A DNA stretch of 64,000 nt, from assembly GCA_964383765.1 (NCBI GenBank), contig CAYLHT010000002.1:62774-126773 (forward strand), read 5' to 3'. Position numbers and translations under genes: made by a program. How positions within the stretch are numbered: position 1 is the first letter of the stretch; each line of letters opens with the position of its first letter. The DNA is from an uncultured Gammaproteobacteria bacterium. GTDB taxonomy: Bacteria > Patescibacteriota > Patescibacteriia > SBBC01 > CAIJZX01. Shown in pieces: positions 6,001-22,129 of the stretch. The notes under the pieces were generated by a model, which was not told where the DNA came from, ran no database searches, and was given only the letters and a program-made list of their open reading frames with translations.

Positions 6001-9000
6001 GCTCCGGCATCCGCGATCATGACGGCCGGCGGGGCTTGGTCAAATTCCGGTACCTTTACGAGCAATAGCGGCACGGTCAAATTCATTGGTACGTCGTCAT
6101 ATACGGTTGATGTCGGTGGAGGCAGCAATACTTTTAACAACGTTATTTTTGATGGCATTGGGGGAGCGTGGCGTCCAAATGCAAACAATTTTCGGATTGA
6201 TGGCGACTTCACCCTGACCAACGGAACCATTCAGGGTAACGGTGGCAACTGGATCATTGTGAAGGGAAATATTGCTTGCGGCGCCACCTGTGGATCAATC
6301 GACATGACCTTGAATTCCGGGACTGGTGTCTTTGAGCACTTGCTGACCAGTGGCAGTAAGAACTTCGGTACCAGCGTATCGGGCGACACGACGAACTGGA
6401 AGTTCTACGATTTGATGTTCGATGGTAACGCCACGGCAACTACCAGCACCACCCCCACCTCGCCAGGTACGATTACCATCACGCACCAAATGACGATCGC
6501 TATTGCCGGTACGACGTTAGATGCTGGCAATCGTACTTGGATTTTATCGGGTACTGGCACCGGCGCTTCTGCCCCGTTGATCAACGCCGGAACGTTGACT
6601 GGCAATGCATCGACGTTCAAGTACACCGGCGCAGACGCCACGACCGATATTAAAGGTACTACCTACTACAATTTAACCCTCGCGCCGACCATCACCACTG
6701 CCACCGCCTATAATGCCAATGGCGCGATCACCGCAACTGGCGCGCTATCAATCAACCCGACCTCCTCCGGTGCCAATGCGCTAACGTTCACCCTGGGCGG
6801 CACCACCAGCTTTACCGGGTTAACTACCATCACGCGTACAACTTCCGCCACGTCCGAACTGAATACAAGCGCTGCGTCACATTACAATTTTACGACCGGC
6901 GGCTTGACCATCAATGCCGGCGGGACATTTACCGGCAATACGAGCACGACGGTGACCGTGAACGGCGACATTACGATTGCTTCAAGCGGGACCTTGACCA
7001 GCACGTCCGGTAACGTAACCACCTCTGGGACATTCTCAAACAGTGGAGTATTCACCCACAACAGTGGAACGCTCACCATGACCGGCAGTGGCAAGACGTT
7101 AACCTCGGGTGGGAGCACCTTGAATAATGTCACCTTGTCTGGCTCGATCACCTTGGCGAACGCTACGCATACTATTGCCGGCAACTTGAGTTTGACCGGC
7201 GGCACGATTACAGCCGGAACATCGCTGATTGATATGACCGGGACCACGAAAACTATCGATGGTGGTTCGCAAACCTTGTACGATTTGACCATCGATGGGA
7301 CCACGACCTTGCAAACGGCGGCGATGAGTGTCTCGCATGTGCTGACGATTAGTGGCACAAAACAACTCACCATTAATCAGGACCTGACATTAACCAGTAA
7401 TGCTGGGACGCCATTTGTTTTATCCGGCACATTGGCCGGATCAAATTCACTGTATTACCAAAAAGGCGATACCTCATCGGCCTCATTCCCGACCTCCGGC
7501 ACAATTACAGCCAACATTGTGTTTGATACGATCAATGGGAACGGCGGAGACAGCTTTAGTCTGATCCCGAACCGAACCGCCTCGGCGCCATTCGGAGGCA
7601 ACGTCACCTGCTATGATAACCCCTCCGGCGTCACGCCGATTTGTAAATTCCTGACCGGCACGCCCACGATTTCTGGGAACTTGTTGGTGGCCGATAATGG
7701 TAACGGGGCGTCGCTGGATGCCAGTTCAAATCATCCGGATATAACCATTTCGGGCAATGTCTCGGCTACTGGCACGGGTGGATCATTGAGCATGGGTTCT
7801 GGTACCTGGACAGTGGGCGGTAATTTTGACCTGACGAATTTTGCTTCATTCGCCAACAATTCGGGAACCATTGTCCTCAACGGCAACTCGAAAACCTTAA
7901 CGACCAACGGCCAAACATTATTCAACCTGACTTTTTCCGGCGGCGGAACTGACACGCTCTCCGGGACTGTCACCGCCGCTGGCAACGTGGTGTTGAACAC
8001 GTCAGTGGCCGCCGGTTCGCTGACGATGACCGGGACCAAGAACCTGACCGGCGGAACGGCGACGCTCGACAATTTGACGGTCTCCGGTTCGCCCGTAACG
8101 CTGCAAACCAGCAATCTAACCGTTGGCACCCTGCTGACCGTCTCTTCGAGCAAGTCGTTAACCATTAACTCAGGGATCGTCCTGACCCTGTCTAAAACCT
8201 CGGGCACAAGCCTCACCATGACGAGTGCGACCATCAATGGCCCTGGCAAACTGATCTACCAAAGCACCTCGACCTTCCCGTCCGATGGCACGCTGGCCAG
8301 CATCCCGATTGTCCGGTTTGACCTGGTCAACGTGGCCGCGAATGGCAGCATGGTCATTCCGCAACGGTCAGACTATGGGGCGGTCGAAGTCTACAACAAC
8401 TCGGCGAGTAATAAGACGCTCAAAACCAATTCGAATACAACCTACACACTGAACGGTATCACCGCCAACCTGTACATCTACGCCGATGGCGGCGGCAACA
8501 CTACCTTCGATGCAACGGGCGCCGGAACCGTCAACTCGCCAATGACGGTTCCCGGTAACCTCGACTTCCTTGGTACCGGTGCGGGCAGTGAAATCATCAC
8601 CTCCGGTACGGGTACGTGGACGGTCACGGGTACCGTCGACTTCTCGGCGGCTGGCGGAGGAGCCGGAACGTACACAGCGACGAGCGGCAACACCTTTGTG
8701 ATGAACGGCCTGACCAAGACCCTGACGAGTAATGGCAACGCCTTTTCAAATCTGACGTTCTCAGGTAGCGGTACGACGACCATGGCGGATAGCATTTCAG
8801 CCAGCGGTGATGTGGTGTTGAATGGCAGTATTGGTGGCGGTTCCCTGACCATGTCTGGCGTCGGGAAAAACCTAACGGGCGGTTCGGCTACGTTGGCCAA
8901 CCTAACCATTTCCAATTCATCTGGGACTATCACCTTGACCGCCTCAAACCTGACCGTCAATACCGTGTTGACCATTAACTCGGGTGCTAACCTAACGTTA

Positions 9001-12000
9001 GGGTCGGGTCGAACCTTGACCCTGTCCCGCAATAACGTCAGCGCTTCCTTCAGCTTGAGCGGAACCTTGACCGGTACAGGCACCTTGATCTATCAGAATT
9101 TCTTGGCTGATAATGGCGGCACGTACTTCCCGACAACCGGGACCTTGGCTGCTTCGCCGAATGCTCCCACCATTCGATTTGATACTGCGAACGGTACGTT
9201 ACACGTGCCCGCTCGGACGGATTACGGGACGATTGAGGCCTACAAGAATGGCATCGCGAATGTCAGTGTCGTTTTGGGAACAGCCGCGTCTCAGAGTCTG
9301 AGTTTGTCCGGCAACCTCGACATCCAGAATGCAAATGCGACAAACACCTTGACGCTGGATGGAAACACCAACACTCCGGTGACCATGACGATCACCGGCA
9401 ACGTCACGAACTCAGTCGGCACCGGGAACACGACGTTCACCATGGGCGCCGGAACATGGACTGTGTCCGGCAACTTCGACCTGACGAATATTGATTCCTT
9501 CAGCAATAACAGCGGCACACTCGCGTTGAATGGCTCCTCAGCGAAGGCCCTAACCTCAAATGGCCAAACGGTCTTTAACCTGACCATCTCAGGGGCGGGA
9601 GCGACGACGCTCTCAGACGCCGCGATTGCGGCCGGGGACGTGATCCTGAATAGCACGGTGAGCGCCGGTTCCTTGACGATGAACGGCGCTGGCAAGAACC
9701 TGACGGGTGGTAGCGCGACCCTCGCGAACCTTACCATTTCGAATGGGTCCGGTACCATCACGTTGACTGGATCTGATCTGACCGTTAGTACCGTCTTGGC
9801 GATCAGCGCGAATGCCAATCTCACCTTAGCTTCCGGCCGAGTTTTGACCTTGTCTCGTAACAATGCCAGTGCTTCCTTTACGTTGCCAACGAATGCCACG
9901 CTGACTGGTCCGGGGACACTGGTGTACCAAAACTTCACCGCTGACAACGGCGGCACGTATTTCCCGACGACGGGGACTTTGGCTTCTAATCCCATCATCC
10001 GGTTTGATACGTTGAATGGTAACCTCCACGTCCCAGCCCGTACGGACTATGGCTCGATCGAGGCGTATGGTGACGCCGGAATCAGCGCCGCTCGGACCGT
10101 TACTCTGGGTACGGCCTCATCACAAACTATTACGACCAGTGGCTACCTCGACGTGATCGCCAACAGCAACACTGGCGGCCGGAACGTCACCCTGAACGGC
10201 AGTACCAATGATCCAACCTTGAACGTGGGTGGAGACTTTGCGTTCACCGGGACTGGAAGTACAAGTGAAGCCGTAACCGCGCCGGATGCAAGCGCGACCT
10301 GGACAGTGACCGGAAATTTCGACCTGACGAACGGCACGTGGACGGCTGGTGCTGAAACGCTGAAAATGAATGGAACGGCCAACTTGAAAGCCGCCGGTCA
10401 AACCATCAAGAATGTCACGATTGACGGAACGAATAGCACGGTCACGGTCACCGGATCAGACCTGACGGTCTCAGGAACGCTGACCATCGGCGGCGATGCG
10501 GCGGCGAATACCGACGTGCTCTCGATTGGCTCAGGTCGCCAAGTTCTGTCCGGCACGGCCGGGGCGGTGACGCTGACGGATGCAACCGATACCATTAGTG
10601 GATCTGGGACCCTGAACGTTGAGAATAGTAACCTTAGCGATCAGGGGACCTTGAGTGCCAATGTCACCTATACGATAGTTTCGAGTGACATCAACGCCAC
10701 CGCTCGCACGTATGGTGCGAATCTGACGTTTGATAATACGAATGGGGGAGGCTCAGTCTTTCTCAGCACTGGGACATTCGCGGTCACTGGGAACATGTCC
10801 TATGTTTGTAGCTTCAACTGTGACGCCGTCTTCCTGGACGGAGGAGATTTTAACCCCTTTGTGACGATTGGCGGATCCTTTAGTGTGACAGACCCAGGTA
10901 ACGCATCAAGCATGAGCATGGGCAACCAGACCTGGACAGTGAGTGGTAGCTTCAATTTGACCGGTCTGGGTAGTCTAAGCGCGACGGGCACGCTGCTTAT
11001 GAATGGAACCGGGACGCTGACCTCTAATAGTCTGTCTCTCAACAATGTTACTCTTGATACGTCGGGCGGAGGGACGATTACACTCGCGAACGCGGCTCAG
11101 AGTATTGCCGGTAACCTAGTGCTCACATCTGGCGGGACACTTACCGATGCCGGAACCTCGACCGAGGTCGACATGACGGGAACCAATAAAACAATTACCG
11201 GCGCCGGTAAAACGCTGCGTAACCTGACCATCGCCGGCACGATTACGTTACAAACGACTGACCTGACCGTCAGTACCCTATTGACCGTCAACACTTCGAA
11301 ATCACTGACGATCAACAGCAGCCGAACGTTAACCCTGTCAGGCAATAGCGGCACCACCCTATCACTCTCCGGGACGATCAATGGCCCTGGAACTCTGACC
11401 TACCAAAATAGCGCCACCGCCTTCCCAGCCGGAGGGGCGCTCGCCAGTATTCTGATTGCTCGTTTCGACCTGGTGAATGTCTCATCCGGCGGAAGCATGG
11501 TGATTCCGCAACGGGCGGACTATGGCGCGGTCGAAGCCTACAATAATTCTTCAAACAACAAGACCCTCAAGACCAATTCCAACTCGACATACACCTTGAC
11601 CGGCTCAACCGCCAATCTGTACATCTATGCCGATGGCACAGGCAATACCACCTTCGATGCGACGGGCGCGACCACGGTCAATTCGCCGATGACGATTGGC
11701 GGTAACCTTGATTTCCGCGGAACGGGGAGTGGCAGTGAAGCGATTACTTCAGGTACTGGCACCTGGACCGTCTCGGGCAGTGTCGACTTCTCAGCGGCCG
11801 GAGGCGGCAGCGGCACCTACACCGCGACGAGTGGTAATACACTGGTTATGAATGGTACCTCAAAAACGCTGACGACGAATGCGAACAGCCTCGACAACGT
11901 AACATTCTCGGGTAGCACGACCACGACCTTGGCTGACAGCGTGACAGCCACCGGCAACGTCGTCTTGAATAACACCATCTCAGCCGGATCGACAACCATG

Positions 12001-13488
12001 ACGCTGAGCGGCACGAGTAAAACCCTGACCGGCGGATCAGCCACGCTCAACAACCTAACCGTTTCCGGAACCATTACGATTCAAACCAGCGGCGTCACCG
12101 TTGGAAGCACCTTATCGGTGACCGGTACCCTAAGCGGCACGCAAAACGTCACGGTTAATGGTACCGCCAGCGGTTCAGGCACAGTCACCTTGACCGGCGG
12201 GACCTTCGAACAACGAGTCGGGGCCGCACAAAACTTCGGTTCAACCTCGGGGAGTAACGATTGGACGTTCAATAATCTGACCTTCTCGAACTCGTCTGGT
12301 TCCGATCGGACCGTAACTTTTGCCTCAACCGGATCAGGACAAGTGATTGTCAGCGGTACCTTGACCATCGGTAACGGGAGCGATTCGAACGTCACGACCG
12401 TGGATAATGAAACGAATGACCGGGTGATTGACGCGAATGGAGCCGTGGCGATCACGGCCAAGGGTTCGTTGACGGCTTCATCCACGGCCAGCTTCACCGT
12501 GGCTGGCAATTGGACCTTAACAAGCGGGGGAGTCTTTACGGCGGGAACCGGTACGGTCACCATCGACGGGGCCAGCCAGCAAACCCTCACCGGCACGATG
12601 ACCGGTTCGAACAAGTTCAATAATCTGACCATCACGAACAATTCTGGATCCGACCCGGATTCGTCACCATCCGTTATCTTCGCAAATGATCTTGCCACCG
12701 GCGCCACCTTGACCGCGGCGACCGCCGGTACCAAGTTGCGCTTCAACGCCGGTAGTACCTACACCCCAACCGCTATCAACCTGAATGGGCAAAGCACAAG
12801 CACGCCCGTCGTCTTACATAGTTCAAACGCCGGCACCACCTTTACATTCAGCGCCGGCACGGGGAGTCGGACAGTTTCGAATACGTTCGAAAAAGATTCC
12901 GACGCGTGCGGGAGCGACGGGGGAAAGATTGACGCTTCGGACGGAACGAATCATGATGAAGGGAACGATAAATGTTGGGTGTTTGGTAAACTGACCGTCA
13001 GTTTGTCGGCCACCAGTGTCAATTTAGGAGCGCTCAGCTCATCCACCAACAGTTTTGCTGGAATTAGTTCAACCGTCTCGACGACTGCTGCGAACGGGTA
13101 TGTCTCGTTTGTCAAATACGGAGCTACCTTGACTTTTGGCTCAAACACGATCGCGGATGTTTCCGGCTCCGGGGCGGATAATCAAACCGCGGGCATGAAC
13201 CCGGTTGTCAACGGCGGCGCCTTCGGCGTCAACACCTCAAAATCAGGCCAGACAATTACCTTGGCTGATTCCGACACTTCGGGATGCTCTACGAATGGCA
13301 CTGCTGCCACGACGAACAACGCGGTCAGTTCTAAAGCCTTGACCACCAGCTTCCAACAGTATGCCTCGAACTCGAGCGCCACTAACAATGATCCATCTAC
13401 CTTGTGTTTTATCTCGACCGTGGGCGTCTTGAACGTACCGGGTACCTACACTAGCACTGCCACGCTAGTCACGACTGCCAAATTCTGA
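1..13488 (+). CDS. Giant secreted repeat surface protein / adhesin-like, more than 4487 aa. 5' end lies outside the window. The frame is open from nt 1, and the tracked ORF starts at TTG 25.
   Basis: Single uninterrupted ORF. Composition is extremely T/G/S/N-rich with recurring GTGTWTVSGNFDLTN and LTGGSATLxNLT units typical of beta-helix or Ig-like adhesin repeats. The N-terminal ~360-aa domain motif LGPLxIGxFQxAxQWQ recurs at aa ~1 and ~365. Many overlapping antisense ORFs are spurious. Confidence 0.8.
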   Translation, partial: DAPDISPALFTLGPLQIGGNSFQGAQWQEPREWQLASDAILTVGDADFTADQTDVIEPLKASYRRDETVDVKIYKSGYRFKGDKVKNGVGKNRPAAVTKISLVRLATGEVENFTTTTNDIVRNGRGLELFHLAPPSRDFHPGQYILQLTLSDGATTSVESRPFAWGVLAVNLRRSIERPNTATQIGLAVLNKYGHTECAVPITLVVTDPDGQSKTLTTKDGSIVRSDTCANGNITNDFDFAAPYTTGGVGTYSLHVSSNTGEGDFSIDDTFEVQNQVDFDVQRTKFSMRIYPYGDPYDQQFTIVANKDYQGPVTERVPLSFDITAISDNGNVVVSADHQDVTWTVDWKAGETHTLGYTVDFPDVSPEFYQLGPLTIGDFQEARQWQIASDATCTIASGTGLNWSTAGWSGCTGGGYPGQNASGDSVQINTGVTITLNVSPANTVANVTIGTSTFNTITTLTFGAGNTLHATGTTTIGATNETANYTIDVAGGTYTADGAITINGGSSSSRLGKLNVGNGAQAAGTITAGGGVTCAGTAADAQIAMTAPSSGTNLFNVTSGAFGSGGAVECTLNASASGNVKMSGSATQTMVNSANYPAVEIATTSSATAQNATTAAAFTFASLTIDSGGKFTKVGATSANMTVTGTSSITGTFTTATAATGTLTFTGAVTVSDPGVLDLSGQNPTVTFTNATLTNNSNTAGSFKTGTGTLTLAASPTFAGSGTGGINLQQATVTIASGSVFTNSITNGTLTFSGSTGLTFSNPTVANTLSLTTGSTTSVTNTMLFTANSSGTVKTMVQMNGNANITVGTLTLQAPSGAGNTNVSEQVTCNAGSGTFTATTVNVTGNSTSTGDAELDMQGCTFTANGLVTLTGGTNATGVALLKGSNGTMNINAGLSEVAGGTITNAKLTTSSTETINFVGTWTGAGTLSLNSGTLTKFTGASTALNAAFGTSTWAKWEVVSGTTTLGATQTITGLQVDAGATLAGATFLLTDKCSGADTSGFRIDGTFSGTSGGAALDTASCVIDGRTSGGGAASIAFTTGTVTVSATMSIGSNANLSVSSTTSFAISGAVTLTNNGTVTTTGTSGITGSVAGSTWTQGTNAVLHFGGNTTTLMSGATLDANTNSGNTVDYSQNGAQTCKVTNYQTLKFSGGGTKTCTITAGTNTIQDLKMTAGSWSPGQNVTVANTLTVEGGTLTTGNFNLTITGTTSITSGTLQLDGTGTKTLQGLVTLNGTGNLTGASAGIVLGSGATAGGITNTSGTVTITGTVTMSTNNGALVSTTAMSITTLTANTASAFTHSGAGGLTVSGTLTVTSPAVLTNTGLVTSTGTLAGTGNFTNGNGGTLHLAATPTITTLSASTNANTVDFNGDAGITIPLVTYWNLTMTPTFNATDRTYTMGTGTTTISNNFTINPTDSTGSGNTLTVTMAGAINVTGLTTIDGSGTVNGVGKLDAVGSNNLTTGTLDIESFGTFLAQTSTVTLNTSTASSTLFTLASSNATFTAGTSTLKMSSDAAETLTSGTFTSGNAFSTLQLVPAITANRTYTFGTGAIAATTFTIQPTNTANTLTVNMAGNITTTGLTTIDGTTATGKLDTVADTNSLTSGTLTVGAKGNLTMTGTAPVLTLNTSTGSSTLFTLTSGGVFSAGTSTVTIQSDGATENLTGGTGSFTSSNAFNTLTLSPTMTSGRAYSFGSNAVTINSGFNVTPAAGSALALTVNLGSGGLTVSGTTTIAPTSSATANLTTTASNYALTTNALTISNAGTFTGNATTTVTVTTDVTINAGGTLSSTSGNLSVGGNFTVNSTGAYTHNSGLLTMTNTVAKSMNGTSTTTLSLYKLTVNVSGTSAVTLNGSYDVTVNNALNVGDSDSLTIATGRTMTAANTITMNTSGTIASSGTGLFVIKDTSTSGPVGGTLSASVRFDASAANIPSTIFIARTYGGAVELYNSSGAHSITAAAGAYTFSSTLTTTESGGTSLSATLSAATGSPAVAVTGTVTIGVNTTLTAPASAIMTAGGAWSNSGTFTSNSGTVKFIGTSSYTVDVGGGSNTFNNVIFDGIGGAWRPNANNFRIDGDFTLTNGTIQGNGGNWIIVKGNIACGATCGSIDMTLNSGTGVFEHLLTSGSKNFGTSVSGDTTNWKFYDLMFDGNATATTSTTPTSPGTITITHQMTIAIAGTTLDAGNRTWILSGTGTGASAPLINAGTLTGNASTFKYTGADATTDIKGTTYYNLTLAPTITTATAYNANGAITATGALSINPTSSGANALTFTLGGTTSFTGLTTITRTTSATSELNTSAASHYNFTTGGLTINAGGTFTGNTSTTVTVNGDITIASSGTLTSTSGNVTTSGTFSNSGVFTHNSGTLTMTGSGKTLTSGGSTLNNVTLSGSITLANATHTIAGNLSLTGGTITAGTSLIDMTGTTKTIDGGSQTLYDLTIDGTTTLQTAAMSVSHVLTISGTKQLTINQDLTLTSNAGTPFVLSGTLAGSNSLYYQKGDTSSASFPTSGTITANIVFDTINGNGGDSFSLIPNRTASAPFGGNVTCYDNPSGVTPICKFLTGTPTISGNLLVADNGNGASLDASSNHPDITISGNVSATGTGGSLSMGSGTWTVGGNFDLTNFASFANNSGTIVLNGNSKTLTTNGQTLFNLTFSGGGTDTLSGTVTAAGNVVLNTSVAAGSLTMTGTKNLTGGTATLDNLTVSGSPVTLQTSNLTVGTLLTVSSSKSLTINSGIVLTLSKTSGTSLTMTSATINGPGKLIYQSTSTFPSDGTLASIPIVRFDLVNVAANGSMVIPQRSDYGAVEVYNNSASNKTLKTNSNTTYTLNGITANLYIYADGGGNTTFDATGAGTVNSPMTVPGNLDFLGTGAGSEIITSGTGTWTVTGTVDFSAAGGGAGTYTATSGNTFVMNGLTKTLTSNGNAFSNLTFSGSGTTTMADSISASGDVVLNGSIGGGSLTMSGVGKNLTGGSATLANLTISNSSGTITLTASNLTVNTVLTINSGANLTLGSGRTLTLSRNNVSASFSLSGTLTGTGTLIYQNFLADNGGTYFPTTGTLAASPNAPTIRFDTANGTLHVPARTDYGTIEAYKNGIANVSVVLGTAASQSLSLSGNLDIQNANATNTLTLDGNTNTPVTMTITGNVTNSVGTGNTTFTMGAGTWTVSGNFDLTNIDSFSNNSGTLALNGSSAKALTSNGQTVFNLTISGAGATTLSDAAIAAGDVILNSTVSAGSLTMNGAGKNLTGGSATLANLTISNGSGTITLTGSDLTVSTVLAISANANLTLASGRVLTLSRNNASASFTLPTNATLTGPGTLVYQNFTADNGGTYFPTTGTLASNPIIRFDTLNGNLHVPARTDYGSIEAYGDAGISAARTVTLGTASSQTITTSGYLDVIANSNTGGRNVTLNGSTNDPTLNVGGDFAFTGTGSTSEAVTAPDASATWTVTGNFDLTNGTWTAGAETLKMNGTANLKAAGQTIKNVTIDGTNSTVTVTGSDLTVSGTLTIGGDAAANTDVLSIGSGRQVLSGTAGAVTLTDATDTISGSGTLNVENSNLSDQGTLSANVTYTIVSSDINATARTYGANLTFDNTNGGGSVFLSTGTFAVTGNMSYVCSFNCDAVFLDGGDFNPFVTIGGSFSVTDPGNASSMSMGNQTWTVSGSFNLTGLGSLSATGTLLMNGTGTLTSNSLSLNNVTLDTSGGGTITLANAAQSIAGNLVLTSGGTLTDAGTSTEVDMTGTNKTITGAGKTLRNLTIAGTITLQTTDLTVSTLLTVNTSKSLTINSSRTLTLSGNSGTTLSLSGTINGPGTLTYQNSATAFPAGGALASILIARFDLVNVSSGGSMVIPQRADYGAVEAYNNSSNNKTLKTNSNSTYTLTGSTANLYIYADGTGNTTFDATGATTVNSPMTIGGNLDFRGTGSGSEAITSGTGTWTVSGSVDFSAAGGGSGTYTATSGNTLVMNGTSKTLTTNANSLDNVTFSGSTTTTLADSVTATGNVVLNNTISAGSTTMTLSGTSKTLTGGSATLNNLTVSGTITIQTSGVTVGSTLSVTGTLSGTQNVTVNGTASGSGTVTLTGGTFEQRVGAAQNFGSTSGSNDWTFNNLTFSNSSGSDRTVTFASTGSGQVIVSGTLTIGNGSDSNVTTVDNETNDRVIDANGAVAITAKGSLTASSTASFTVAGNWTLTSGGVFTAGTGTVTIDGASQQTLTGTMTGSNKFNNLTITNNSGSDPDSSPSVIFANDLATGATLTAATAGTKLRFNAGSTYTPTAINLNGQSTSTPVVLHSSNAGTTFTFSAGTGSRTVSNTFEKDSDACGSDGGKIDASDGTNHDEGNDKCWVFGKLTVSLSATSVNLGALSSSTNSFAGISSTVSTTAANGYVSFVKYGATLTFGSNTIADVSGSGADNQTAGMNPVVNGGAFGVNTSKSGQTITLADSDTSGCSTNGTAATTNNAVSSKALTTSFQQYASNSSATNNDPSTLCFISTVGVLNVPGTYTSTATLVTTAKF
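7780..12100 (+). repeat. Intragenic tandem array of about five ~0.83-kb (~275-aa) repeat units, with near-identical blocks ~3.15 kb apart (8300-8720 vs 11450-11870; 8880-9250 vs 9705-10080).
   Basis: Peptide stretches recur with few substitutions, for example PQRSDYGAVEVYNNSASNKTLKTNSNTTYTL...GTGTWTVTGTVDFSAAGGG and LTGGSATLANLTISNSSGTITLT...TDYGTIEAY. The same periodicity is visible at nucleotide level. Confidence 0.7.
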
Positions 13489-13584: not shown

Positions 13585-14643
13585 ATGACCAAACACCAAC
13601 GGTTTGTACTCGCCCGTATCGTGGCTGGACTCAGTGCAGCGGCATTGTTGTTTTCGTTGAGCCCACAAGTCACGTTTGCGACTGGGGTTCTGACCACACC
13701 GCGTATTTATCTTGGCCGTGAGCAAGCCGGGTTAACGACCGGTGAATCGTTCCAGATTTTCTTCACCCCAGCCACCGCCGTCAGCGGGGGGGCCGGCAAC
13801 AATAAAGTTATCCTCGTCTTCACCGGTGCAAACGGGACCTGGTGTAATACCGTCGGAACTGGCGATTTAGTCGTCACCGGTATCGCTAACCCAACCGGTG
13901 CGACGGAAAGCGCCACGAGTTTACCCGGCGCCTCACTTACCGGAGCGTGTACGAAGAACCCTGACACCTTTACTCTCAGCGGGGTCAACAACCTGAGCGG
14001 CGGCGGAGCAACCAAGTATGGGGTCCAGGTTGTCGAAGCCAGCTCAACCAAGATCGGAAGCGCATCAGCGGCGAACGATATTCAAGTCACGATCAAGACG
14101 AACAACGGGTCAGCTGACGTCGACACCGGTACGCTTGCCCTATCGACAATTACTAGCGATCAAGTTGCCGTTACAGCTACGGTCAACCCCTCACTGACGG
14201 TCACCTTAAGTCCGACGTCGGCCGCCCTCGGAACTCTGGACCTAACCCATGTCAACCAAGCCGGCGTGACCAGTACTGTCACCACCAATGCCTCCAGCGG
14301 GTATAACTCATCGGTCAAATATGACGCCACCCTCACGTCCGGCTCGGATACCATCGGCGACGCTTCGGGTGGAACGATTGTGGCCGGTACCGATTCTGAA
14401 TTTGGCGCGTCCTCATCACAATCTGGAAATACTATTGCCCAGTGGAATCCGACGAGTTGTTCAACCACAACCACAACCTCGAACGCGACGGCCTTATCGA
14501 CCTCCTTCAAGACTTTTGCCTCGGGGACCGGTCCGGTGAACGCCGAAGGGACAACACTGTGTTTCTTAGCCGGAATTAATGTCAGCACTAAAGCAGGCAG
14601 CTATACCAGCACGGCGACGGTCGTCGCCACGGCTAAATTTTAG
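13585..14643 (+). CDS. Secreted surface protein (~352 aa). Its C-terminal ~150 aa is homologous to the C-terminus of the giant protein, and its N-terminal domain is homologous to the N-terminus of the 15653 protein.
   Basis: Signal peptide MTKHQRFVLARIVAGLSAAALLFSLSPQVTFA (alternative ATG at 13567). The C-terminus SLTVTLSPTS...AGSYTSTATVVATAKF parallels the giant protein SLSATSV...PGTYTSTATLVTTAKF. Confidence 0.7.
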   Translation: MTKHQRFVLARIVAGLSAAALLFSLSPQVTFATGVLTTPRIYLGREQAGLTTGESFQIFFTPATAVSGGAGNNKVILVFTGANGTWCNTVGTGDLVVTGIANPTGATESATSLPGASLTGACTKNPDTFTLSGVNNLSGGGATKYGVQVVEASSTKIGSASAANDIQVTIKTNNGSADVDTGTLALSTITSDQVAVTATVNPSLTVTLSPTSAALGTLDLTHVNQAGVTSTVTTNASSGYNSSVKYDATLTSGSDTIGDASGGTIVAGTDSEFGASSSQSGNTIAQWNPTSCSTTTTTSNATALSTSFKTFASGTGPVNAEGTTLCFLAGINVSTKAGSYTSTATVVATAKF

Positions 14644-14652
14644 ACCAAGTCC

Positions 14653-15645
14653 ATGTCACGGAGGATTGCCTGGCCCATCTCGGTACTGGCGGTTGTGTCC
14701 CTGGCGGTTGCTTTTAGCAAGCCGGCCCGAGCCTTAACCCTGGTCCCGCCGAGTCTTGAATTTTCTGTTCAAAAAGGCGAAACCGTAAAAACTGAGATTA
14801 AGCTCTACAATGAGACGAGTCAGCCTCAGACCCTCTTCCCGTCGACGGCCAATTTTACCGCCGGGGATGAAGACGGAACACCGAATTTTGATCCTGATTC
14901 AAAGCAGGTTGACCTAGCCAGCTGGATCAAAGTCGACAAAGCATCATACACGCTCGACAGTAATCAACAGGTGACCGTGGCAGTCACGATCGCGGTTCCG
15001 GCCAACGCCGATCCCGGCGGGCACTACGCCGCCCTGTTCTTTGGCAATGCACCGGCGGCGACCACCGGTTCAGGCGTGGCAGTCCAATCCAAAATCGGCA
15101 CCTTGGTCATCTTGCGCGTTGAAGGTCAAATTAACGAATCGGCCTCCGTCACGAGCTTTGTGATCAAAGGTCAGAAGAAAACTCTGACTCGGCCGCCGGT
15201 CTCGCTCGAAGCCGTCATCCAAAACCAGGGTAACGTTCACGTCCGACCCGAAGGCACCATCACGATTCACAATATGATTGGCGGGCAAACAACCAGCCTG
15301 GTCTTCAATAGTGCTCGGGGAGCAATTCTACCGAATTCGTCCCGGCGCTTTGACGTTACCTGGCAAAAGGGCACTATTGATGAAACCCCGGGCAGCTTCT
15401 TCCATGAAGTCGCGGCCGAATGGCACAATTTCGCCCTCGGGACGTACACGGCCTCATTGGCGGTGACCTACGGAACGAATCAGCAAGCCTTATCGAGTGA
15501 TGTCCGCTTCACGATTTTCCCCTGGCAACTCCTACTGGTCTTGCTGATTATCATCGTGGCGGTCGTGATCTTGCTGACTCTCGGGATTCGCAATTACAAC
15601 GCCATGATCATCAAGCGGGCCGAACGGGGTCCGGGCAAAGGCTAA
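14653..15645 (+). CDS. Signal-peptide protein with beta-sandwich-like domains and a C-terminal TM anchor (330 aa). The architecture resembles DUF916/DUF3324 (CscA-like) or PapD-like surface-assembly proteins.
   Basis: N-terminal signal AVVSLAVAFSKPARA. C-terminal hydrophobic stretch WQLLLVLLIIIVAVVILLTLGI followed by a basic tail. A beta-strand-rich sequence lies between them. Confidence 0.7.
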   Translation: MSRRIAWPISVLAVVSLAVAFSKPARALTLVPPSLEFSVQKGETVKTEIKLYNETSQPQTLFPSTANFTAGDEDGTPNFDPDSKQVDLASWIKVDKASYTLDSNQQVTVAVTIAVPANADPGGHYAALFFGNAPAATTGSGVAVQSKIGTLVILRVEGQINESASVTSFVIKGQKKTLTRPPVSLEAVIQNQGNVHVRPEGTITIHNMIGGQTTSLVFNSARGAILPNSSRRFDVTWQKGTIDETPGSFFHEVAAEWHNFALGTYTASLAVTYGTNQQALSSDVRFTIFPWQLLLVLLIIIVAVVILLTLGIRNYNAMIIKRAERGPGKG

Positions 15646-15652
15646 ATTTTCC

Positions 15653-16966
15653 ATGGTCGGACGGTCACGAGTCGCGTGGTCGCTCGTGGTTACCGCCGCC
15701 ATGTTGGTGTTGGCTCGACCGGCCATGGCAGGCAGTTTGAACCACCTGCGGGATTACGTTAGTCGTCAACAAGCCAATCTGACCAGCGGTGAACGACACC
15801 AAGTGTTTTTTAGTCCGATCACCTCCTTGCCCGGCAGTAGTAATACGGTGGTCTATCAGTTTCCTGATGCCGATGACGGATCGTGGTGTCGGGGCGCGGG
15901 CAGCGATCTGGTCGTAGTCGGAATCACCGATCCGGAAGGGGCAACTGAGGGTGCGACTGCCTTGCCCGGAACGTTGACCGGCGCCTGCACGATCGGGAGT
16001 GGGACGGGGAGTTTCGATACCATTACGATTACTGGCGTAGGGCCGCTGACCGCCGGAACTGTGTATGGGTGGTCAGCCAGTGATGGCTCAAGTGCCAAGC
16101 TCGGCACGCCGCCCCCTGCCCAAGGGATCATGGTCACACTCAGTACCACCAATGGCGTCTCCACCGTGGACACAGAAACCTTTTTTATCTCGGTCACCAC
16201 CAATGATCAAGTGCTAGTGACTGCGACGGTTGCCAATACCACGCCTCCATCACCCACCAATCCGGTGATAACCTTCTCTGGATTCAGCGCGCCAGATGCT
16301 CGCGTGACCATTAGCCGGGATGATCAAGCGCTGCAAACGAGTTCCGCCGACAGCCAAGCGAACTTTTCCATCACCTTGTCCGACCAGCCGACGGGCAGTC
16401 ATGTGTATGTGGTCAGTGGGCGTGATGCTGACGGCCATACCCTCGCCAGCGTGACCTTCGCCCTGAGTTTACAACTCAGCACAACGACACTTGTCAACGG
16501 TGTCTTTCTCGGGCCCTCAATCGGCATTGATCATGCTTCGGTTTTGCTCGGTTCACCGGTCACCATTTTTGGTACGACTGTGCCGTCGAGTGCGGTGACG
16601 TTGACGGTCAATTCAGTGTCGGCCAAGTCGGTGACTGTCACGGCTGGCAGCACCGGAGCCTGGTCAGCCGTCATTCAAACCAGCGACTTGAGCGTTGGAA
16701 CGCATACCGCCAAGGCCCGGAGCGTGTCGGCCGGAACAGTTTCCAGCTTTAGCCAGATCATTAGTTTTAGCGTGGGCAGCAATCCCGCCTTTGGCAAACT
16801 CCCATCTGACATTAATGTCGATGGCCACGTCAATATTGTCGATTTTAGTATCATGTTGTTCTACTGGTTACAGCGCGCGCCAGCCAATGTTCGCGTCGAT
16901 ATTAATGGCGACGGGATCGTGAACCTGATTGACTTTAGTATTCTCTTGTACCAATGGACCGACTAA
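15653..16966 (+). CDS. Secreted dockerin-containing protein (437 aa). It has an N-terminal domain paralogous to 13585, Ig-like middle domains and a C-terminal type-I-like dockerin.
   Basis: The C-terminus carries two calcium-binding loop plus helix segments, DINVDGHVNIVDFSIMLFYWL and DINGDGIVNLIDFSILLYQW, matching the dockerin D-x-N-x-D-G-x-x-N-x-x-D pattern. The N-terminus FFSPITSLPG...WCRGAGSDLVVVGITDPEGATEGATALPGTLTGACT aligns with 13585 FFTPATAVSG...WCNTVGTGDLVVTGIANPTGATESATSLPGASLTGACT. Confidence 0.75.
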   Translation: MVGRSRVAWSLVVTAAMLVLARPAMAGSLNHLRDYVSRQQANLTSGERHQVFFSPITSLPGSSNTVVYQFPDADDGSWCRGAGSDLVVVGITDPEGATEGATALPGTLTGACTIGSGTGSFDTITITGVGPLTAGTVYGWSASDGSSAKLGTPPPAQGIMVTLSTTNGVSTVDTETFFISVTTNDQVLVTATVANTTPPSPTNPVITFSGFSAPDARVTISRDDQALQTSSADSQANFSITLSDQPTGSHVYVVSGRDADGHTLASVTFALSLQLSTTTLVNGVFLGPSIGIDHASVLLGSPVTIFGTTVPSSAVTLTVNSVSAKSVTVTAGSTGAWSAVIQTSDLSVGTHTAKARSVSAGTVSSFSQIISFSVGSNPAFGKLPSDINVDGHVNIVDFSIMLFYWLQRAPANVRVDINGDGIVNLIDFSILLYQWTD

Positions 16967-18078
16967 AACTGCTTGCCATCGGAGTGGTTATCGGTGGGTT
17001 GGCAATCTGGACCCGACCGGCTATGGCGGCGACCCCGACAACCCGCCTGGTTGGACCAACCGGCATTATTCGGAGCGGTGATACGATTGCGGTGGAGGTC
17101 AGGATTGATAGCGCTGGACGACTGGTGAACACGATTGACCTCCACGTGGCCTATAGTCCGACCTATCTGCAGATTATCCGGGTGGAACGCCAAGATCGTA
17201 TCTGGACGCTGTGGCCGAATAGTCCCAGTTGGGATAACCACACCGGGCAACTCGAACTGAGCGCCGGTCGTCCGCATGGGTTAGTGGCGATTGACGCCAG
17301 CGTCGCGACCGTTTTGTTTCGAGTCATGGCCGCCGGCTTGACGTCTGTGATTATCTCCCAACCCGCTTCAGCCGTGTACTTGAATGATGGGTTGGGAACC
17401 CGAGTCGGCGCGACCGGCGCCCATCTAGATGTCCCGATTGGAGATAGTCTCGTGCCGGTCATTCAACTTGATCCCGCAACTACCCCAGTCCCGGATGCCT
17501 GGTCTGCCAACGATCGGGTCAAGATTGTTTGGCCGGTTGAATCAGGCACGGTCTATAGTTATCGCTGGTCGAATGTGGTTGAAGATCAACCGGACGATAC
17601 TCCGGAAACCAATCCCGGTACCTTTGTTCAAGACCAGGTGGATGATGGCGTCTATTTCTTTACCATCAAAAGCAAGCTCGGGGATGGGTTATGGTCGCGG
17701 GTCAGTCAATTTCGCTTTCTGATTGACCGCCAACCACCGGCCGCGTTCGAGATCTTCGCTCTCCCGGCCTATCAAACCGGCGGCCAAGCCACGATTAGCT
17801 GGTCAACCACAGACCAGACGTCTGGAGTGGCAGAGTATCGTGTATTGATCAATGGCCATGATCGGGGTTCGGTCACCAGCCCGTTGGTGCTCGATCCCGA
17901 ATGGTCGGGCACGCGGCTAACCATTCGGGCGCTGGATGGCGCCGGTAACGAACGTCTGGCTGAGTTCAAGGTACCCGGGATTCGTCAATCCTGGGCGGGC
18001 GCGATTGCCGCTGGGGCGAGCCTCGCGATCGGCATCAGCGCGTGGGCGATCAGGCGAAAATCTCGCCGGGCAGTGTGA
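16954..18078 (+). CDS. Membrane-anchored cohesin-like domain protein 1 (374 aa): signal peptide, cohesin-like beta-sandwich, Fn3-like domain, C-terminal TM.
   Basis: The N-terminal region TIAVEVRIDSAGRLVNTIDLHVAYSPTYLQII...ATVLFRVMAAGLTSVIISQPASAVYLNDG fits the cohesin pattern (x-I-x-V-x-I, a named interface loop, FxV at the end). C-terminal TM AGAIAAGASLAIGISAWAI followed by RRKSRRAV. Confidence 0.7.
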   Translation: MDRLKLLAIGVVIGGLAIWTRPAMAATPTTRLVGPTGIIRSGDTIAVEVRIDSAGRLVNTIDLHVAYSPTYLQIIRVERQDRIWTLWPNSPSWDNHTGQLELSAGRPHGLVAIDASVATVLFRVMAAGLTSVIISQPASAVYLNDGLGTRVGATGAHLDVPIGDSLVPVIQLDPATTPVPDAWSANDRVKIVWPVESGTVYSYRWSNVVEDQPDDTPETNPGTFVQDQVDDGVYFFTIKSKLGDGLWSRVSQFRFLIDRQPPAAFEIFALPAYQTGGQATISWSTTDQTSGVAEYRVLINGHDRGSVTSPLVLDPEWSGTRLTIRALDGAGNERLAEFKVPGIRQSWAGAIAAGASLAIGISAWAIRRKSRRAV

Positions 18079-18094
18079 TATACTCAAGGTGAGT

Positions 18095-19552
18095 ATGCGC
18101 CGACTCGAAAGCATCTTGACGCATCGCTGGTTGCTCAAACCAGCCGTAACTGGCGGAGTGGTCGCCGCAATTTTTTTGTTGAATGTCCACGGGGCTGACG
18201 CGACTGGAGCCAGTTTGAAAATTTCTCCGCTGACCGGAACCTATGAAGTCGGGAGTACGGTCGATGTTTCGTTTTTAGTAGACACCGGCGGCGACGCGAT
18301 CAATGCTGTCCAAGCTGATATTCAATTTCCGGCCGATAAACTCCAAGTGGTCAACCCGGTGGCCAGTACCTCGTTCATTTCGATCTGGGTGACGACGCCG
18401 ACTTATTCGAATACCGACGGGACCATTCACTTCCAAGGCGGTTTACCCAACCCCGGAATCAAGACCGGCGGTGGCGTCATTAGTACAGTTACATTTCGGG
18501 TCAAAACTCCGGGGCAGGCTATCATTAAGTTTGCGCCCACCTCGCAGGTCTTACGCAACGACGGTCAGGGGACCAATATTCTGACCAGCACCGGTACGGC
18601 CGAGTATACGCTCAAGACGCCGCCACCAGCCGGGCCGGTGGTCTCGAGTCCAACCCATCCGGATGGTAACCAGTGGTACAGCAATCCGGACATTCAGTTT
18701 ACCTGGGAAGCGATCGATGGAGCGGTAGGCTATAGTTATAGCTTTGATCAAGTAGCAAAATCGACACCAGATGAGAGCATTGATACGGCCCAGTCAGCCA
18801 CCAGCGTGAAAGCTACTGGCGACGGCGTCTGGTATTTCCATGTTCGCGCTCGAACGACCAGTTGGGGCGGGACCACAACCTATCCCGTGCAGATTGATAC
18901 CACGCCGCCAGCCGCCTTCACGCCGAAACTGGACAGTGAAACGATTGTCCCGGACGATTCAACCACCTTACGTTTTTTGACTTCAGATGCCGCCTCCGGA
19001 ATTGATCATTACGAGGTCAGACAGGTGACGGTTGATGCTGGGCCCGATATCAATACCTTGTTCGTCGAAGCCAGTAGTCCGTACGTCGTCAAACCCGTCG
19101 CGGCCGGTAAGTATGAACTTCAAGTCCGAGCCTTTGATCGGGCCGGCAATTCGACGGATGGGACCGTCCGTTTGTCCGTCGTGGCGGGAGGTTTGCCATT
19201 CTTTGCGCGCGTCCCACTCTTGAAGAATCCGGCCATTGCCAACGCCGCCATGTTGGGGTTGCTGATCGCGGTGGTCCTAATGCTCGGATATTTAGTCGTC
19301 CGGCGTCTCCGTCTGCGCACGACGGTCCAGCGTGACGTGGCGGCCCTCGAACGGGATGCCGAGAAAAAAGCGGCTGCCCTCCAACGCGAGTTGGATGCCT
19401 TGCGGCAAGCCCAGCAAATGATTCAACCGGCCGTCGGCGCTCCCGCCCCATCGAGTGGAACCATGACGACGACGCCGTCCGCCCCGGTGCCCCCAACTGT
19501 GCCACCGTCCGCTCCAGTCGTCCCACCCCCACCCCCAGTGCCATCGCTATGA
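18095..19552 (+). CDS. Membrane-anchored cohesin-like domain protein 2 (485 aa): signal peptide, cohesin-like domain, two Fn3-like domains, TM, coiled-coil and Pro-rich tail.
   Basis: Start chosen at ATG 18095 (MRRLESILTHRW...signal) with AAGGTGAG upstream, because the tracked ORF start at 17936 overlaps the previous gene. Cohesin-like region SLKISPLTGTYEVGSTVDVSFLVDTGGDAINAVQADIQFPADKLQVVNPV...VISTVTFRVKTPGQAIIKF. TM LGLLIAVVLMLGYLVV. Confidence 0.7.
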   Translation: MRRLESILTHRWLLKPAVTGGVVAAIFLLNVHGADATGASLKISPLTGTYEVGSTVDVSFLVDTGGDAINAVQADIQFPADKLQVVNPVASTSFISIWVTTPTYSNTDGTIHFQGGLPNPGIKTGGGVISTVTFRVKTPGQAIIKFAPTSQVLRNDGQGTNILTSTGTAEYTLKTPPPAGPVVSSPTHPDGNQWYSNPDIQFTWEAIDGAVGYSYSFDQVAKSTPDESIDTAQSATSVKATGDGVWYFHVRARTTSWGGTTTYPVQIDTTPPAAFTPKLDSETIVPDDSTTLRFLTSDAASGIDHYEVRQVTVDAGPDINTLFVEASSPYVVKPVAAGKYELQVRAFDRAGNSTDGTVRLSVVAGGLPFFARVPLLKNPAIANAAMLGLLIAVVLMLGYLVVRRLRLRTTVQRDVAALERDAEKKAAALQRELDALRQAQQMIQPAVGAPAPSSGTMTTTPSAPVPPTVPPSAPVVPPPPPVPSL

Positions 19553-21228
19553 CGAAGTCATCGGCAATCGTCATTGTGTCTGTGGTGCTCCTGTGGTTTG
19601 GCTTGCATCCTGCCCGAGCCTCGGCGGCCAGCCTGTATTTTAGTCCTAGTCAAAAATCAGTTGTCACCGGGGGTCGAGTAACCGTGACACTCAAGGTCAA
19701 TGCTCAAGGTCAAGCAATCAATGCTGCGGAGGGCAGTATCCGGTTCTCCAATTCGCTGCTGCGGCTGGTCTCCATCAGCAAAAGCGGATCAATTTTTACT
19801 TTTTGGCCAGTCGAACCATATGGTTCGACTACTGCAGGCACAGTCAGCTTCTCTGGCGGTCTCCCGAATCCGGGCTACGCTGGTTCAAGCGGCACACTTG
19901 TCAGCCTCAGTTTTGAAGCGCTCAGTAGCGGTACCGCCGAACTTTCCATTTCGGGCGCGAAAGTTTTAGCCAACGACGGTCAAGGCACAAATGTCCTCAC
20001 TACCTATGGTTCAGCTAGCCTGACCATCGGCGCCGCCAGCGCTCCTCCGCCCACCCCGCCAACTGACTCACCGCGACCAGCCCCAATCGTGAGTTCGACA
20101 ACGTTCCCAGACCAAAGTACCTGGTATACATCCGAGCAGGGGAACGTGAGTTGGACGAAACCAAGCGGAGTCACCGGCTTCAGCTTTCATCTCAGTCAGG
20201 ATCTGAACGATGTCGTCGATGAAACGGTTGACACCACCTCGACCACGACGTCGATTGATGTCTTGACCGATGGCGTGTGGTACTTTGCCGTTCGGGCCAA
20301 GTCTGCAAGCGGATGGAGCGCGCCCAGCCGCTTCCGCATTCAGCGCGACCATACTCCGCCCGCCGACTTCACCATACAGATCCAGCGCGATCGTGGAGTG
20401 ACCGACCCCTCTCCCCACGTTGTGTTTACCGCCACTGATGAAACCAGCGGGATTGATCACTACACCTTATCGCTTGATGGTGGGACGGCCACTGAAGTGA
20501 GCAGTCCGGCCAATTTGGCTAATCTGACTGCCGGCCACCACCACGTCATGGTCATCGCTTTTGATCGAGCCGGTAATCAGACGACTAGTCAGACTACTTT
20601 CGATCAGGTCGGTTATCCGGCTCCGATCATCACCAATCTGACGAGCCCACTATTGCTACTGGATCGACTGATTGTTAAAGGGACTGCCACGGCCGGCGAC
20701 ACCGTGACCGTCTTTATAGACAATCAACCGATTGGCCAAGCCATTGCTGGTCAGGTTGATACGAGTGCTCAGGCGGAAGGAGTGACGGTCCGGGCGCCGT
20801 GGATTCTGACGACCGACCATATCTTTCGGCCAGGGCACTATCAGGTGACCGCCCAAGCCGCGGGAGTCAACGGCGAACTCAGCGTAATGACCGATCCGAG
20901 CCCGCTCCTCGTATCGGGGCACTCAATTTGGCTGAGTGGCCAACCGATTGCGACGATCGCCCTGGCCCCGGTGGCCGCGATCGGGTTTGTGGTCTTAGTT
21001 GGTTTGATCACCTTGAGCATGGCGCAGCTACTGTGGACAGTCAGACGCATGCATCTGCGGGAAGTAACCGTCGAACGCGAACTTGAAGATTTACGACGGC
21101 GGGTCAAACGTGGGCAAACCACCTCGGTTGGCCTGGACGAATCATTGGAGGATATAGAACGAGACTTAGTTCGGCCTCGGCGCTCGACCGTTCGTCGGCC
21201 TCGACGCACTGGCCGTCGCCGATCGTAA
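19549..21228 (+). CDS. Membrane-anchored cohesin-like domain protein 3 (559 aa): signal peptide, cohesin-like domain, Fn3-like domains, Ig-like domain, TM and basic tail.
   Basis: Cohesin-like region ASLYFSPSQKSVVTGGRVTVTLKVNAQGQAINAAEGSIRFSNSLLRLVSISKSGS...TLVSLSFEALSSGTAELSI, paralogous to 16954 and 18095. TM AIGFVVLVGLITLSMAQLLW followed by an Arg-rich tail. Confidence 0.7.
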   Translation: MTKSSAIVIVSVVLLWFGLHPARASAASLYFSPSQKSVVTGGRVTVTLKVNAQGQAINAAEGSIRFSNSLLRLVSISKSGSIFTFWPVEPYGSTTAGTVSFSGGLPNPGYAGSSGTLVSLSFEALSSGTAELSISGAKVLANDGQGTNVLTTYGSASLTIGAASAPPPTPPTDSPRPAPIVSSTTFPDQSTWYTSEQGNVSWTKPSGVTGFSFHLSQDLNDVVDETVDTTSTTTSIDVLTDGVWYFAVRAKSASGWSAPSRFRIQRDHTPPADFTIQIQRDRGVTDPSPHVVFTATDETSGIDHYTLSLDGGTATEVSSPANLANLTAGHHHVMVIAFDRAGNQTTSQTTFDQVGYPAPIITNLTSPLLLLDRLIVKGTATAGDTVTVFIDNQPIGQAIAGQVDTSAQAEGVTVRAPWILTTDHIFRPGHYQVTAQAAGVNGELSVMTDPSPLLVSGHSIWLSGQPIATIALAPVAAIGFVVLVGLITLSMAQLLWTVRRMHLREVTVERELEDLRRRVKRGQTTSVGLDESLEDIERDLVRPRRSTVRRPRRTGRRRS

Positions 21229-21351
21229 ACGGGATGATCAAGGTCGCAACCACCTCAGGGTACCAGTCTTGCCAACGGAAGAAAAAGCTGATATCCTGTG
21301 GCTATTCTTGTGTCAGCTAAGGCATTTCTAACCTGACCAAGCCTGAACCGC

Positions 21352-22127: not shown

Positions 22128-22129
22128 TC

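Follow-up and report, generated by a model that had tools for sequence, protein, structure and literature searches.

Candidate phyla radiation (CPR) bacteria account for much of the diversity of bacteria and live in attachment to their hosts' cells, and the mode of that attachment is largely unknown. Hardly any cohesin and dockerin modules have been described outside cellulosomes, and certain cohesin-dockerin pairs are among the most force-resistant protein-protein bonds. The locus considered here, which lies in a 64,000-nucleotide (nt) stretch of contig CAYLHT010000002.1 (the window), has a bearing on both subjects. Pam pili were described in 2026 in Candidatus Mycosynbacter amalyticus (Troman et al., bioRxiv 10.64898/2026.03.03.709456). 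In the PamA and PamB proteins the linker strand is the donated strand, and PamR (32.8 kDa), which has an N-terminal strand, two fibronectin type III (FnIII) domains and a membrane helix, is predicted to end growth and to anchor the fibre; neither cohesin nor dockerin is ever mentioned in that preprint (bioRxiv 10.64898/2026.03.03.709456). The anchoring of Pam pili so far rests on this one predicted tether. In the window, a dockerin gene and three cohesin genes are most likely the 3' part, i.e., the last four genes, of a seven-gene Pam-type pilus operon that runs from before nt 1 to nt 21228, and we think it probable, if some way from assured, that this operon encodes a CPR-specific, chaperone-assisted donor-strand-exchange pilus of the Pam type, with the cohesin-dockerin pair as its membrane anchor. 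An earlier note on the same DNA, made from the sequence alone, had taken the four genes for a free-standing scaffoldin set, a view that gives way once the upstream genes are taken into account.

The identities of the domains could be observed directly, and the earlier note's claim that the first of the four genes encodes a protein ending in a duplicated dockerin was borne out by profile, motif and model. In this protein of 437 amino acids (aa), the adaptor, Pfam Dockerin_1 (PF00404) matched aa 385-431 with 31.1 bits against a gathering score of 22.9, and the profile of the adaptor family matched the solved dockerins 4fl4_A, 2y3n_B, 1daq and 2mte (E = 3e-4 to 1e-3). The two calcium loops, DINVDGHVNIVD (nt 16808-16843) and DINGDGIVNLID (nt 16898-16933), are each followed by a hydrophobic helix, and nothing else in the 64 kb, translated in all six frames, matched a relaxed loop pattern (D-x-[ND]-x-[DN]-x3-[NDST]-x2-D plus a hydrophobic residue) that is looser than D-x-N-x-D-G-x-x-N-x-x-D; by manual count the two repeats are 59% identical to one another. 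The AlphaFold2 model of the adaptor had a mean predicted local distance difference test score (pLDDT) of 92 and placed the dockerin helices at residues 395-403 and 425-433, both with pLDDT above 90. Its two immunoglobulin-like (Ig) domains matched Pfam Big_6 and Big_13 weakly and, by profile, the Ig repeats of the Bap type (7dm0_A, E = 8e-11).

Judged by its sequence, the dockerin protein is itself derived from a pilin. BLASTP aligned adaptor aa 15-236 with aa 39-256 of the pilin encoded two genes upstream at 42% identity (E = 1e-36), a span that takes in both the N-terminal domain and the linker strand. No acceptor domain was detected in the adaptor, either with a hidden Markov model (HMM) of the pilin C-terminal domain or with the NCBIfam model NF058581. 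In the monomer model the 10-residue block means of pLDDT fell to 58-60 over aa 181-200, with aa 188-191 below 50; such low confidence in the strand and its linker is to be expected, because a donated strand would be ordered only in the groove of its partner.

The earlier note had also read the next three genes as each encoding a signal peptide, a cohesin, Fn3-like domains and a transmembrane helix, and in this it was right. All three proteins start with a signal peptide and have one hydrophobic helix in their C-terminal part, with basic residues after it, i.e., the topology of a type-I membrane protein, and the class A gene overlaps the dockerin gene by 13 nt. The class B gene most likely starts at 18095 and not at the mechanical start of its open reading frame (ORF) at 17936, because the former agrees with its orthologues. 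As the least similar of the three, the class A domain (aa 26-172) was the one modelled; classes B and C are homologous to it. The model had a pLDDT of 96.1, and in a Foldseek search of the PDB its top 50 matches were all cohesins (template modelling, TM, scores of 0.62-0.75, probability 1.00), the best being 6kgc_A (E = 4.8e-9, TM 0.75). With this cohesin fold and the two-helix dockerin model, the structure predictions suggested in the earlier note came out in its favour, and the Pfam searches that it suggested did so in part: Dockerin_1 scored above threshold, as did Cohesin (PF00963) for class C (26.1 bits against a gathering score of 24.1), but classes A and B of the window had no match to Pfam Cohesin. 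Among class A orthologues, 26 of 44 matched that family at E < 1e-3, and many homologues of the cohesin proteins bear a precomputed PF00963 assignment; the family profiles matched solved cohesins weakly but consistently. An argument from conserved dockerin-binding residues was dropped, as the profile alignments to solved cohesins (E = 1e-3 to 1e-2) were too weak for it.

That the three cohesin proteins are paralogous, as had been proposed, was upheld by BLASTP (E = 1e-25 to 5e-63), the comparison of class B with class C giving 36% identity over 347 aa (E = 2e-56). Their spacers matched FnIII, PKD, Big_13 and OmpL47-type families weakly and the FnIII of chitinase A1 in the PDB, and the additional domain of class C matched a custom Ig-Ig HMM. 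The charged tail ascribed to all three is present in classes B (about 83 residues) and C (about 72 residues), but in class A the cytoplasmic part amounts to only 8 residues. These differences recur in other genomes, with class A proteins of about 375 aa and a short tail, class B proteins of about 480 aa with a coiled coil and a Pro-rich tail, and class C proteins of about 550 aa with the extra Ig domain, a coiled coil and a basic tail, and the three classes are old, each orthologously conserved with its own type of cytoplasmic tail. The conserved tails of classes B (19301-19549) and C (21010-21225, rich in Arg and Lys) are unexpected in a passive anchor.

The four genes are packed tightly on the + strand (15653-21228), and the series to which they belong begins upstream with a giant ORF, a gene for a 372-aa protein and a gene for a 330-aa protein, the spacing among all seven genes being -13 to +36 nt. 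Homology to Pam pilins was evident in the first two. The 372-aa protein matched the NCBIfam model CPR_Pam_pilin_C over its whole length (E = 4.8e-9) and the C-terminus of the giant protein matched positions 3-148 of its 148 (E = 2.3e-8), with scores of 36.5 and 34.3 bits, respectively, both under the curated cutoff of 55. Within the window, aa 4323-4487 of the giant aligned by BLASTP with aa 224-372 of the pilin, its acceptor domain, at 42-45% identity (E = 1e-21 to 1e-24). When the two Pam models (NF058581 and NF058579) were run against 57 proteins, i.e., 55 pilins from related loci plus the window pilin and the C-terminal fragment of the giant, CPR_Pam_pilin_C was matched by 46 (best E = 9e-29) and CPR_pilus_PamT by 25, from which we conclude that, at the family level and as far as profile matches can tell, the pilins of these loci belong to the Pam family. 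The domain boundaries and conserved linker motif of the window pilin are consistent with a layout of N-terminal domain, strand and C-terminal domain. Sequence and profile searches with the pilin and the chaperone found no relatives in a PDB copy that held no Pam structures.

The giant protein is longer than 4487 aa, because its ORF is already open at nt 1 of the window, and at orthologous loci a gene of 2000 to more than 4400 aa occupies the same position. The donor-strand motif DQVxVTATV is absent ahead of its acceptor domain, where the sequence reads ...NDKCWVFG, and the giant bears no dockerin; no hydrophobic segment was seen in the 4487 aa present in the window. The protein is rich in Thr, Ser and Gly, with modules of about 350 aa repeated near the start of the part present. 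The 330-aa protein resembles PamC and PamD in architecture as these have been described, and its hydrophobicity profile supports a C-terminal membrane helix; Pfam WxLIP_PGBD gave 23.9 bits against a threshold of 27.3. In its family, 23 of 44 members matched WxLIP_PGBD (PF06030; best E = 2e-9), and the family profile matched EfmWxLIP1 (PDB 9i25_C and 9i1y_A, E = 0.003), which hints that this chaperone-like family is a remote relative of WxLIP, and at a link between CPR Pam chaperones and the WxL loci of Firmicutes.

The linker strand is the best-conserved segment of the pilins of these loci (consensus D[QS]VxV[TS]ATVDP), and its core, V-x-V-[TS]-A-T-V, is common to adaptors and pilin linkers. 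The motif was found in 64 of 82 adaptors as against 2% of control windows, and in the adaptor family A191 and V193 are nearly invariant. The strands of adaptor and pilin were more alike within a genome than between genomes (mean BLOSUM score 20.8 versus 19.0 +/- 0.55, permutation p ~2e-4, a test that ignores phylogenetic relatedness). Most relatives of the adaptor are short (about 285 aa) and consist of a signal peptide, the strand (AIDVTVSATV or QQVTVTATV, for example), a linker rich in Pro or Gly, a pair of Ig domains and lastly the dockerin, so that the strand itself is the mature N-terminus.

Relatives of the adaptor are encoded in 296 GTDB species genomes and formed 220 clusters in a representative library at E <= 1e-30. 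Among the best 150 of the representative-library matches, the Ig-Ig-dockerin unit lay at the C-terminus or within about 60 residues of it, and in nearly all at the very end. The names under which the family appears in databases are those of Patescibacteria/CPR lineages (among them Kaiserbacteria, Kerfeldbacteria, Doudnabacteria, Nealsonbacteria, Magasanikbacteria and Taylorbacteria). Many operon-bearing contigs are titled 'uncultured Gammaproteobacteria bacterium' (third-party annotation, TPA), one Pirellulales and one FCPU426, and these look like mislabelled or misbinned records.

With an HMM built for each domain, 86 loci were annotated, and synteny was counted in 80 species-level GTDB CPR genomes. 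The order of genes was nearly universal, i.e., a giant ending in the acceptor domain, one or more pilins, one or more chaperones, the adaptor, and two to five genes for proteins with a cohesin, FnIII domains and a membrane helix. In all 73 evaluable loci a cohesin gene stood directly 3' of the dockerin gene, overlapping it in 36, so that the arrangement sought by the earlier note in related genomes is indeed found there; 5' of the dockerin gene, 52 of 56 evaluable loci had a chaperone-like gene and 51 of 56 a pilin gene. The flanking genes vary by lineage, and the cluster is therefore a self-contained module. A PamR-like protein (strand, Ig domains and membrane helix) was found neither in the window nor in the 86 related loci, where only chance matches were obtained; in its place stand a protein made up of a strand, two Ig domains and a dockerin, and the cohesin membrane proteins. 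There is in addition a third class of adaptor, seen at nine loci, in which the signal peptide is succeeded by some 60 aa of a conserved N-terminal module, an FnIII domain, a poly-Gly linker and the Ig-Ig-dockerin unit, and which is likewise followed by cohesin membrane proteins; upstream of it lie a giant gene and two further genes, of about 800 aa and about 175 aa, with no Pam pilin or chaperone.

Table 1. Genes and domains of the proposed pilus operon, in window coordinates.
Feature	Position (nt)	Strand	Remarks
Giant surface protein, proposed pilus tip adhesin	1..13488	+	>4487 aa, 5' end outside the window
Giant, C-terminal Pam-pilin-type acceptor domain (aa 4323-4487)	12991..13485	+	BLASTP, NCBIfam
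Pam-type shaft pilin, 372 aa	13525..14643	+	Signal peptide, N-terminal beta-sandwich, linker strand, C-terminal acceptor domain
Pilin linker strand DQVAVTATV (aa 212-220), presumed donor strand	14158..14184	+	
Membrane-anchored chaperone-like protein, 330 aa	14653..15645	+	Signal peptide, two beta domains, C-terminal membrane helix aa 294-312
Dockerin-bearing adaptor, 437 aa; proposed pilus terminator/tether subunit	15653..16966	+	
Adaptor, pilin-type N-terminal beta-sandwich (aa 27-182)	15731..16198	+	42% identity to pilin domain; pLDDT mostly >90
Adaptor, donor-strand motif DQVLVTATV (aa 185-193), then Pro-rich linker	16205..16231	+	Core identical to that of the pilin linker
Adaptor, two complete Ig-like domains (aa 205-290, 291-376)	16265..16780	+	Seven-stranded, block-mean pLDDT 89-98
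Adaptor, dockerin module (aa 377-437), two Ca-loop + helix repeats	16781..16963	+	PF00404, motif, model, PDB
Cohesin class A, 374 aa	16954..18078	+	Cohesin nt 17029-17469, two FnIII-like domains, membrane helix nt 17995-18051, 8-residue basic tail
Cohesin class B, 485 aa	18095..19552	+	Cohesin nt 18206-18628, two FnIII-like domains, membrane helix nt 19244-19300, cytoplasmic coiled-coil and Pro-rich tail
Cohesin class C, 559 aa	19549..21228	+	Cohesin nt 19624-20043, two FnIII-like domains, extra Ig domain, membrane helix nt 20953-21009, coiled-coil and Arg-rich cytoplasmic tail

From the order of the genes and the parts of their products we infer how the fibre might be built, that is, the insertion of strands, the order of the subunits and the binding of dockerin to cohesin. 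All seven proteins would be exported via Sec. The giant protein would be the adhesin at the tip, because it has the C-terminal acceptor domain and no donor strand. Copies of the 372-aa pilin would polymerise under it, each linker strand (DQVAVTATV) entering the acceptor domain of the subunit above, and the membrane-anchored chaperone-like protein would cap the open groove at the base of the fibre. The adaptor would be the last to join, by way of its pilin N-terminal domain and its strand DQVLVTATV, and it would carry the two Ig domains and the dockerin in the place of the acceptor; as it donates a strand and offers no groove, growth would end and the chaperone would lose its hold on the fibre. 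The dockerin would then plug, in a Ca2+-dependent manner, into the cohesin of at least one of the three type-I membrane proteins, whose FnIII-like spacers would keep the cohesin above the membrane. The adaptor would by analogy be the counterpart of the tether PamR, with the membrane helix swapped for a non-covalent cohesin-dockerin joint. The earlier note had the system possibly displaying the giant adhesin directly, of which the involvement of the giant stands and the direct display does not: the giant has no dockerin and ends in a Pam pilin C-terminal domain, and would therefore be joined via the pilus shaft. Most likely, then, the pair anchors the base of a pilus and does not directly display enzymes or adhesin modules.

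Several points weigh against this account. The analogy to PamR rests on the published description of the M. amalyticus protein. Both matches of the window to the Pam pilin model fall short of its curated cutoff, and the co-variation of the strands may owe something to shared descent. A plug and socket in a ratio of 1:1 leaves unexplained why one dockerin is accompanied by three conserved classes of cohesin (two to five genes elsewhere), and why the tails of classes B and C are so long. The third class of adaptor occurs with no Pam genes, so that the use of the cohesin-dockerin module extends beyond Pam pili; this points to a cohesin socket shared by fibres of more than one type. The same lineages that have an Ig-Ig-dockerin adaptor and cohesins with no Pam pilin or chaperone upstream lend something to a different explanation, in which the membrane cohesins are the scaffoldins of a free-standing, non-cellulosomal display of dockerin-tagged proteins and the link to pilins is one of neighbourhood only. 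The cohesin and dockerin identities hold equally well for such a display, and among the best 150 of the representative-library matches the Ig-Ig-dockerin unit sits C-terminally behind N-terminal parts of variable length. Yet the 64 kb hold a single dockerin, and it is borne by a pilin-derived protein that has retained the donor-strand motif, each supposed scaffoldin has one cohesin, and the order of giant, pilin, chaperone, adaptor and cohesins is kept across CPR classes, which together make the display explanation quite improbable.

It is also unlikely that the cohesin-like proteins are the platform on which the pilus is assembled, a substitute for an usher that binds pilins or chaperones through its beta-sandwich or FnIII domains, with the dockerin attaching the base of the fibre to wall or glycans. 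The adjacency of dockerin and cohesin genes at every evaluable locus, together with their 36 overlaps, is what one would expect of cognate partners, the fold of the cohesin is a canonical one, and to our knowledge all characterised cohesin-dockerin pairs bind their partner module. What a platform would account for is that three ancient and conserved classes with distinct cytoplasmic tails resemble the parts of a machine more than redundant sockets; in addition, no dedicated trans-envelope assembly machinery was found for Pam pili (bioRxiv 10.64898/2026.03.03.709456), and for a dockerin protein that is essential in a Saccharibacterium, glycans were put forward speculatively as the target (PMC10633639). 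Lastly, the adaptor might be placed distally or laterally, its dockerin engaging cohesins on sister cells or other fibres and so cross-linking cells or fibres. The sequence leaves open whose cohesin is bound, and the Pam pili of M. amalyticus were reported as easily detached, but we regard cross-linking as highly improbable: if growth proceeds as in chaperone-usher pili and in the Pam model as published, a subunit that donates a strand and has no acceptor groove fits only the last-added, membrane-proximal position.

Anchoring of the pilus base to the membrane remains the explanation that we prefer, and a broader form of it may be put forward tentatively, with chances that we would place a little short of even. 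In several hundred CPR species, the cohesin-dockerin pair would bear the load as a non-covalent socket by which a donor-strand-exchange pilus is held to the cytoplasmic membrane, elsewhere the same socket would hold other giant-adhesin fibres, and the two to five paralogous sockets could through their tails couple the fibre to the interior of the cell, for positioning, regulated release or the sensing of host contact. What is new is the functional link to a pilus and not the domains, because NCBI already labels some of the proteins 'dockerin type I' or 'cohesin domain-containing'; our literature searches found no pilus anchored by a cohesin-dockerin pair. If the proposal is true, many CPR lineages anchor their pili by such a joint, and two small recombinant domains suffice to put the question of anchoring to a direct test. 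What is known of cohesin and dockerin biology would be widened by a new mode of pilus anchoring and a new role for the pair, and dozens of CPR annotations of 'dockerin type I' or 'cohesin domain-containing' proteins, which would otherwise suggest polysaccharide degradation, would be explained.

As to the surroundings, a tRNA-Val(CAC) gene (21352-21429) directly after the last cohesin gene ends the series. It overlaps the mechanical GTG start (21354) of the ORF of a signal peptidase I, the real start of which must therefore lie further downstream. A scan of 13300-22300 for promoters and terminators gave counts at or under the shuffled expectation and was uninformative; a promoter-like site at 13496-13524 (TTGACC, 17 nt and TATACT, plus an upstream TG) is situated between the giant and pilin genes and overlaps the mechanical GTG start of the pilin, and sites of its type were no more numerous in the region than in shuffled sequence. 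At 24727-32426, a second large surface protein (2036 aa), which carries a T4SS_pilin domain (PF18895) at its N-terminus together with Big_5 repeats, is followed by two proteins with bacterial TSP3 Ca2+-binding repeats (30838-31347 and 31359-32426); the same T4SS_pilin gene comes after the operon in a relative with 50% identity. The window also contains a transfer-messenger RNA (tmRNA) gene (60899-61300, +) and a further tRNA gene (57155-57229, -), and the remainder is housekeeping, i.e., FtsA, FtsZ, NrdR, a class II ribonucleotide reductase, a release factor of the RF-1 type, GlmS and ComEC.

Set beside the Pam system, the locus has in common with it a CPR-specific operon, membrane-anchored chaperones (in the locus, a chaperone-like protein) with a C-terminal membrane helix, a tip subunit (in the locus, a proposed one) that has only an acceptor, and a terminal tether (likewise proposed) with an N-terminal strand and two Ig/FnIII domains (in PamR by description). 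The short adaptor relatives of about 285 aa have the very layout described for PamR, with a dockerin where PamR has its membrane helix, whereas the adaptor of the window additionally retains the pilin N-terminal domain. The differences are that the proposed tether of the locus ends in a dockerin and is followed by two to five separate proteins with a cohesin, FnIII domains and a membrane helix, and that its proposed tip exceeds 4487 aa, whereas the Pam tip is the small PamT. Relatives of the locus are mainly of the Kerfeldbacteria, Kaiserbacteria and Paceibacteria type, whereas the Pam paper stresses Saccharimonadia and Microgenomatia. To WxL loci the relationship is very distant: EfmWxLIP1 (9i25, 9i1y; PF06030) and the chaperone-like protein match weakly and both have a C-terminal membrane helix, but WxL loci have no Pam pilins, cohesins or dockerins.

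Cellulosome anchoring, as by OlpA and OlpC of C. thermocellum (PDB 3ul4 and 4dh2) and with the ScaB cohesin (4ums), makes use of the same folds, these three structures being among the best fold or profile matches of the window cohesins, and there too a single cell-bound cohesin receives a dockerin-tagged extracellular structure. The locus differs in having one dockerin and no glycoside hydrolases, carbohydrate-binding modules or multi-cohesin scaffoldin, in an anchor that is a membrane helix and not S-layer homology (SLH) repeats or a sortase product, and in its cargo, which is proposed to be a pilus. A cellulosome was rejected outright, with one dockerin in 64 kb, proteins with single cohesins only and no glycoside hydrolase among the annotated neighbours, and on the non-cellulosomal character of the system the earlier note was correct. 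SEML1_0315, an essential dockerin protein from Southlakia (PMC10633639), is encoded by a stand-alone gene of 927 aa with no listed cohesin neighbours, and a link to it was likewise rejected; a preprint on an Omnitrophota 'dockerin-type giant gene' was not relevant to the locus. The cohesins of Archaeoglobus fulgidus (2xdh) and Clostridium perfringens (2jh2, 2vo8 and 2w1n), all among the fold matches, are non-cellulosomal like those of the locus, and in 2w1n the cohesin is followed by an FnIII domain as in the locus proteins; those systems assemble toxins or glycosidases or have unknown partners, and none has been tied to a donor-strand-exchange fibre.

The likeness to chaperone-usher pili (Pap and Fim) is one of mechanism only, the locus having no usher-like gene and a chaperone-like protein that is anchored in the membrane. 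It is with PapH of P pili and the basal pilins attached by sortase that the proposed adaptor finds its functional parallel, each being a subunit that is added last, halts polymerisation and secures the fibre on the cell. PapH remains with the usher in the outer membrane, and basal pilins are joined covalently to peptidoglycan by sortase; in the locus, by contrast, the proposed link is a non-covalent cohesin-dockerin joint to a protein of the cytoplasmic membrane, in a cell with no outer membrane.

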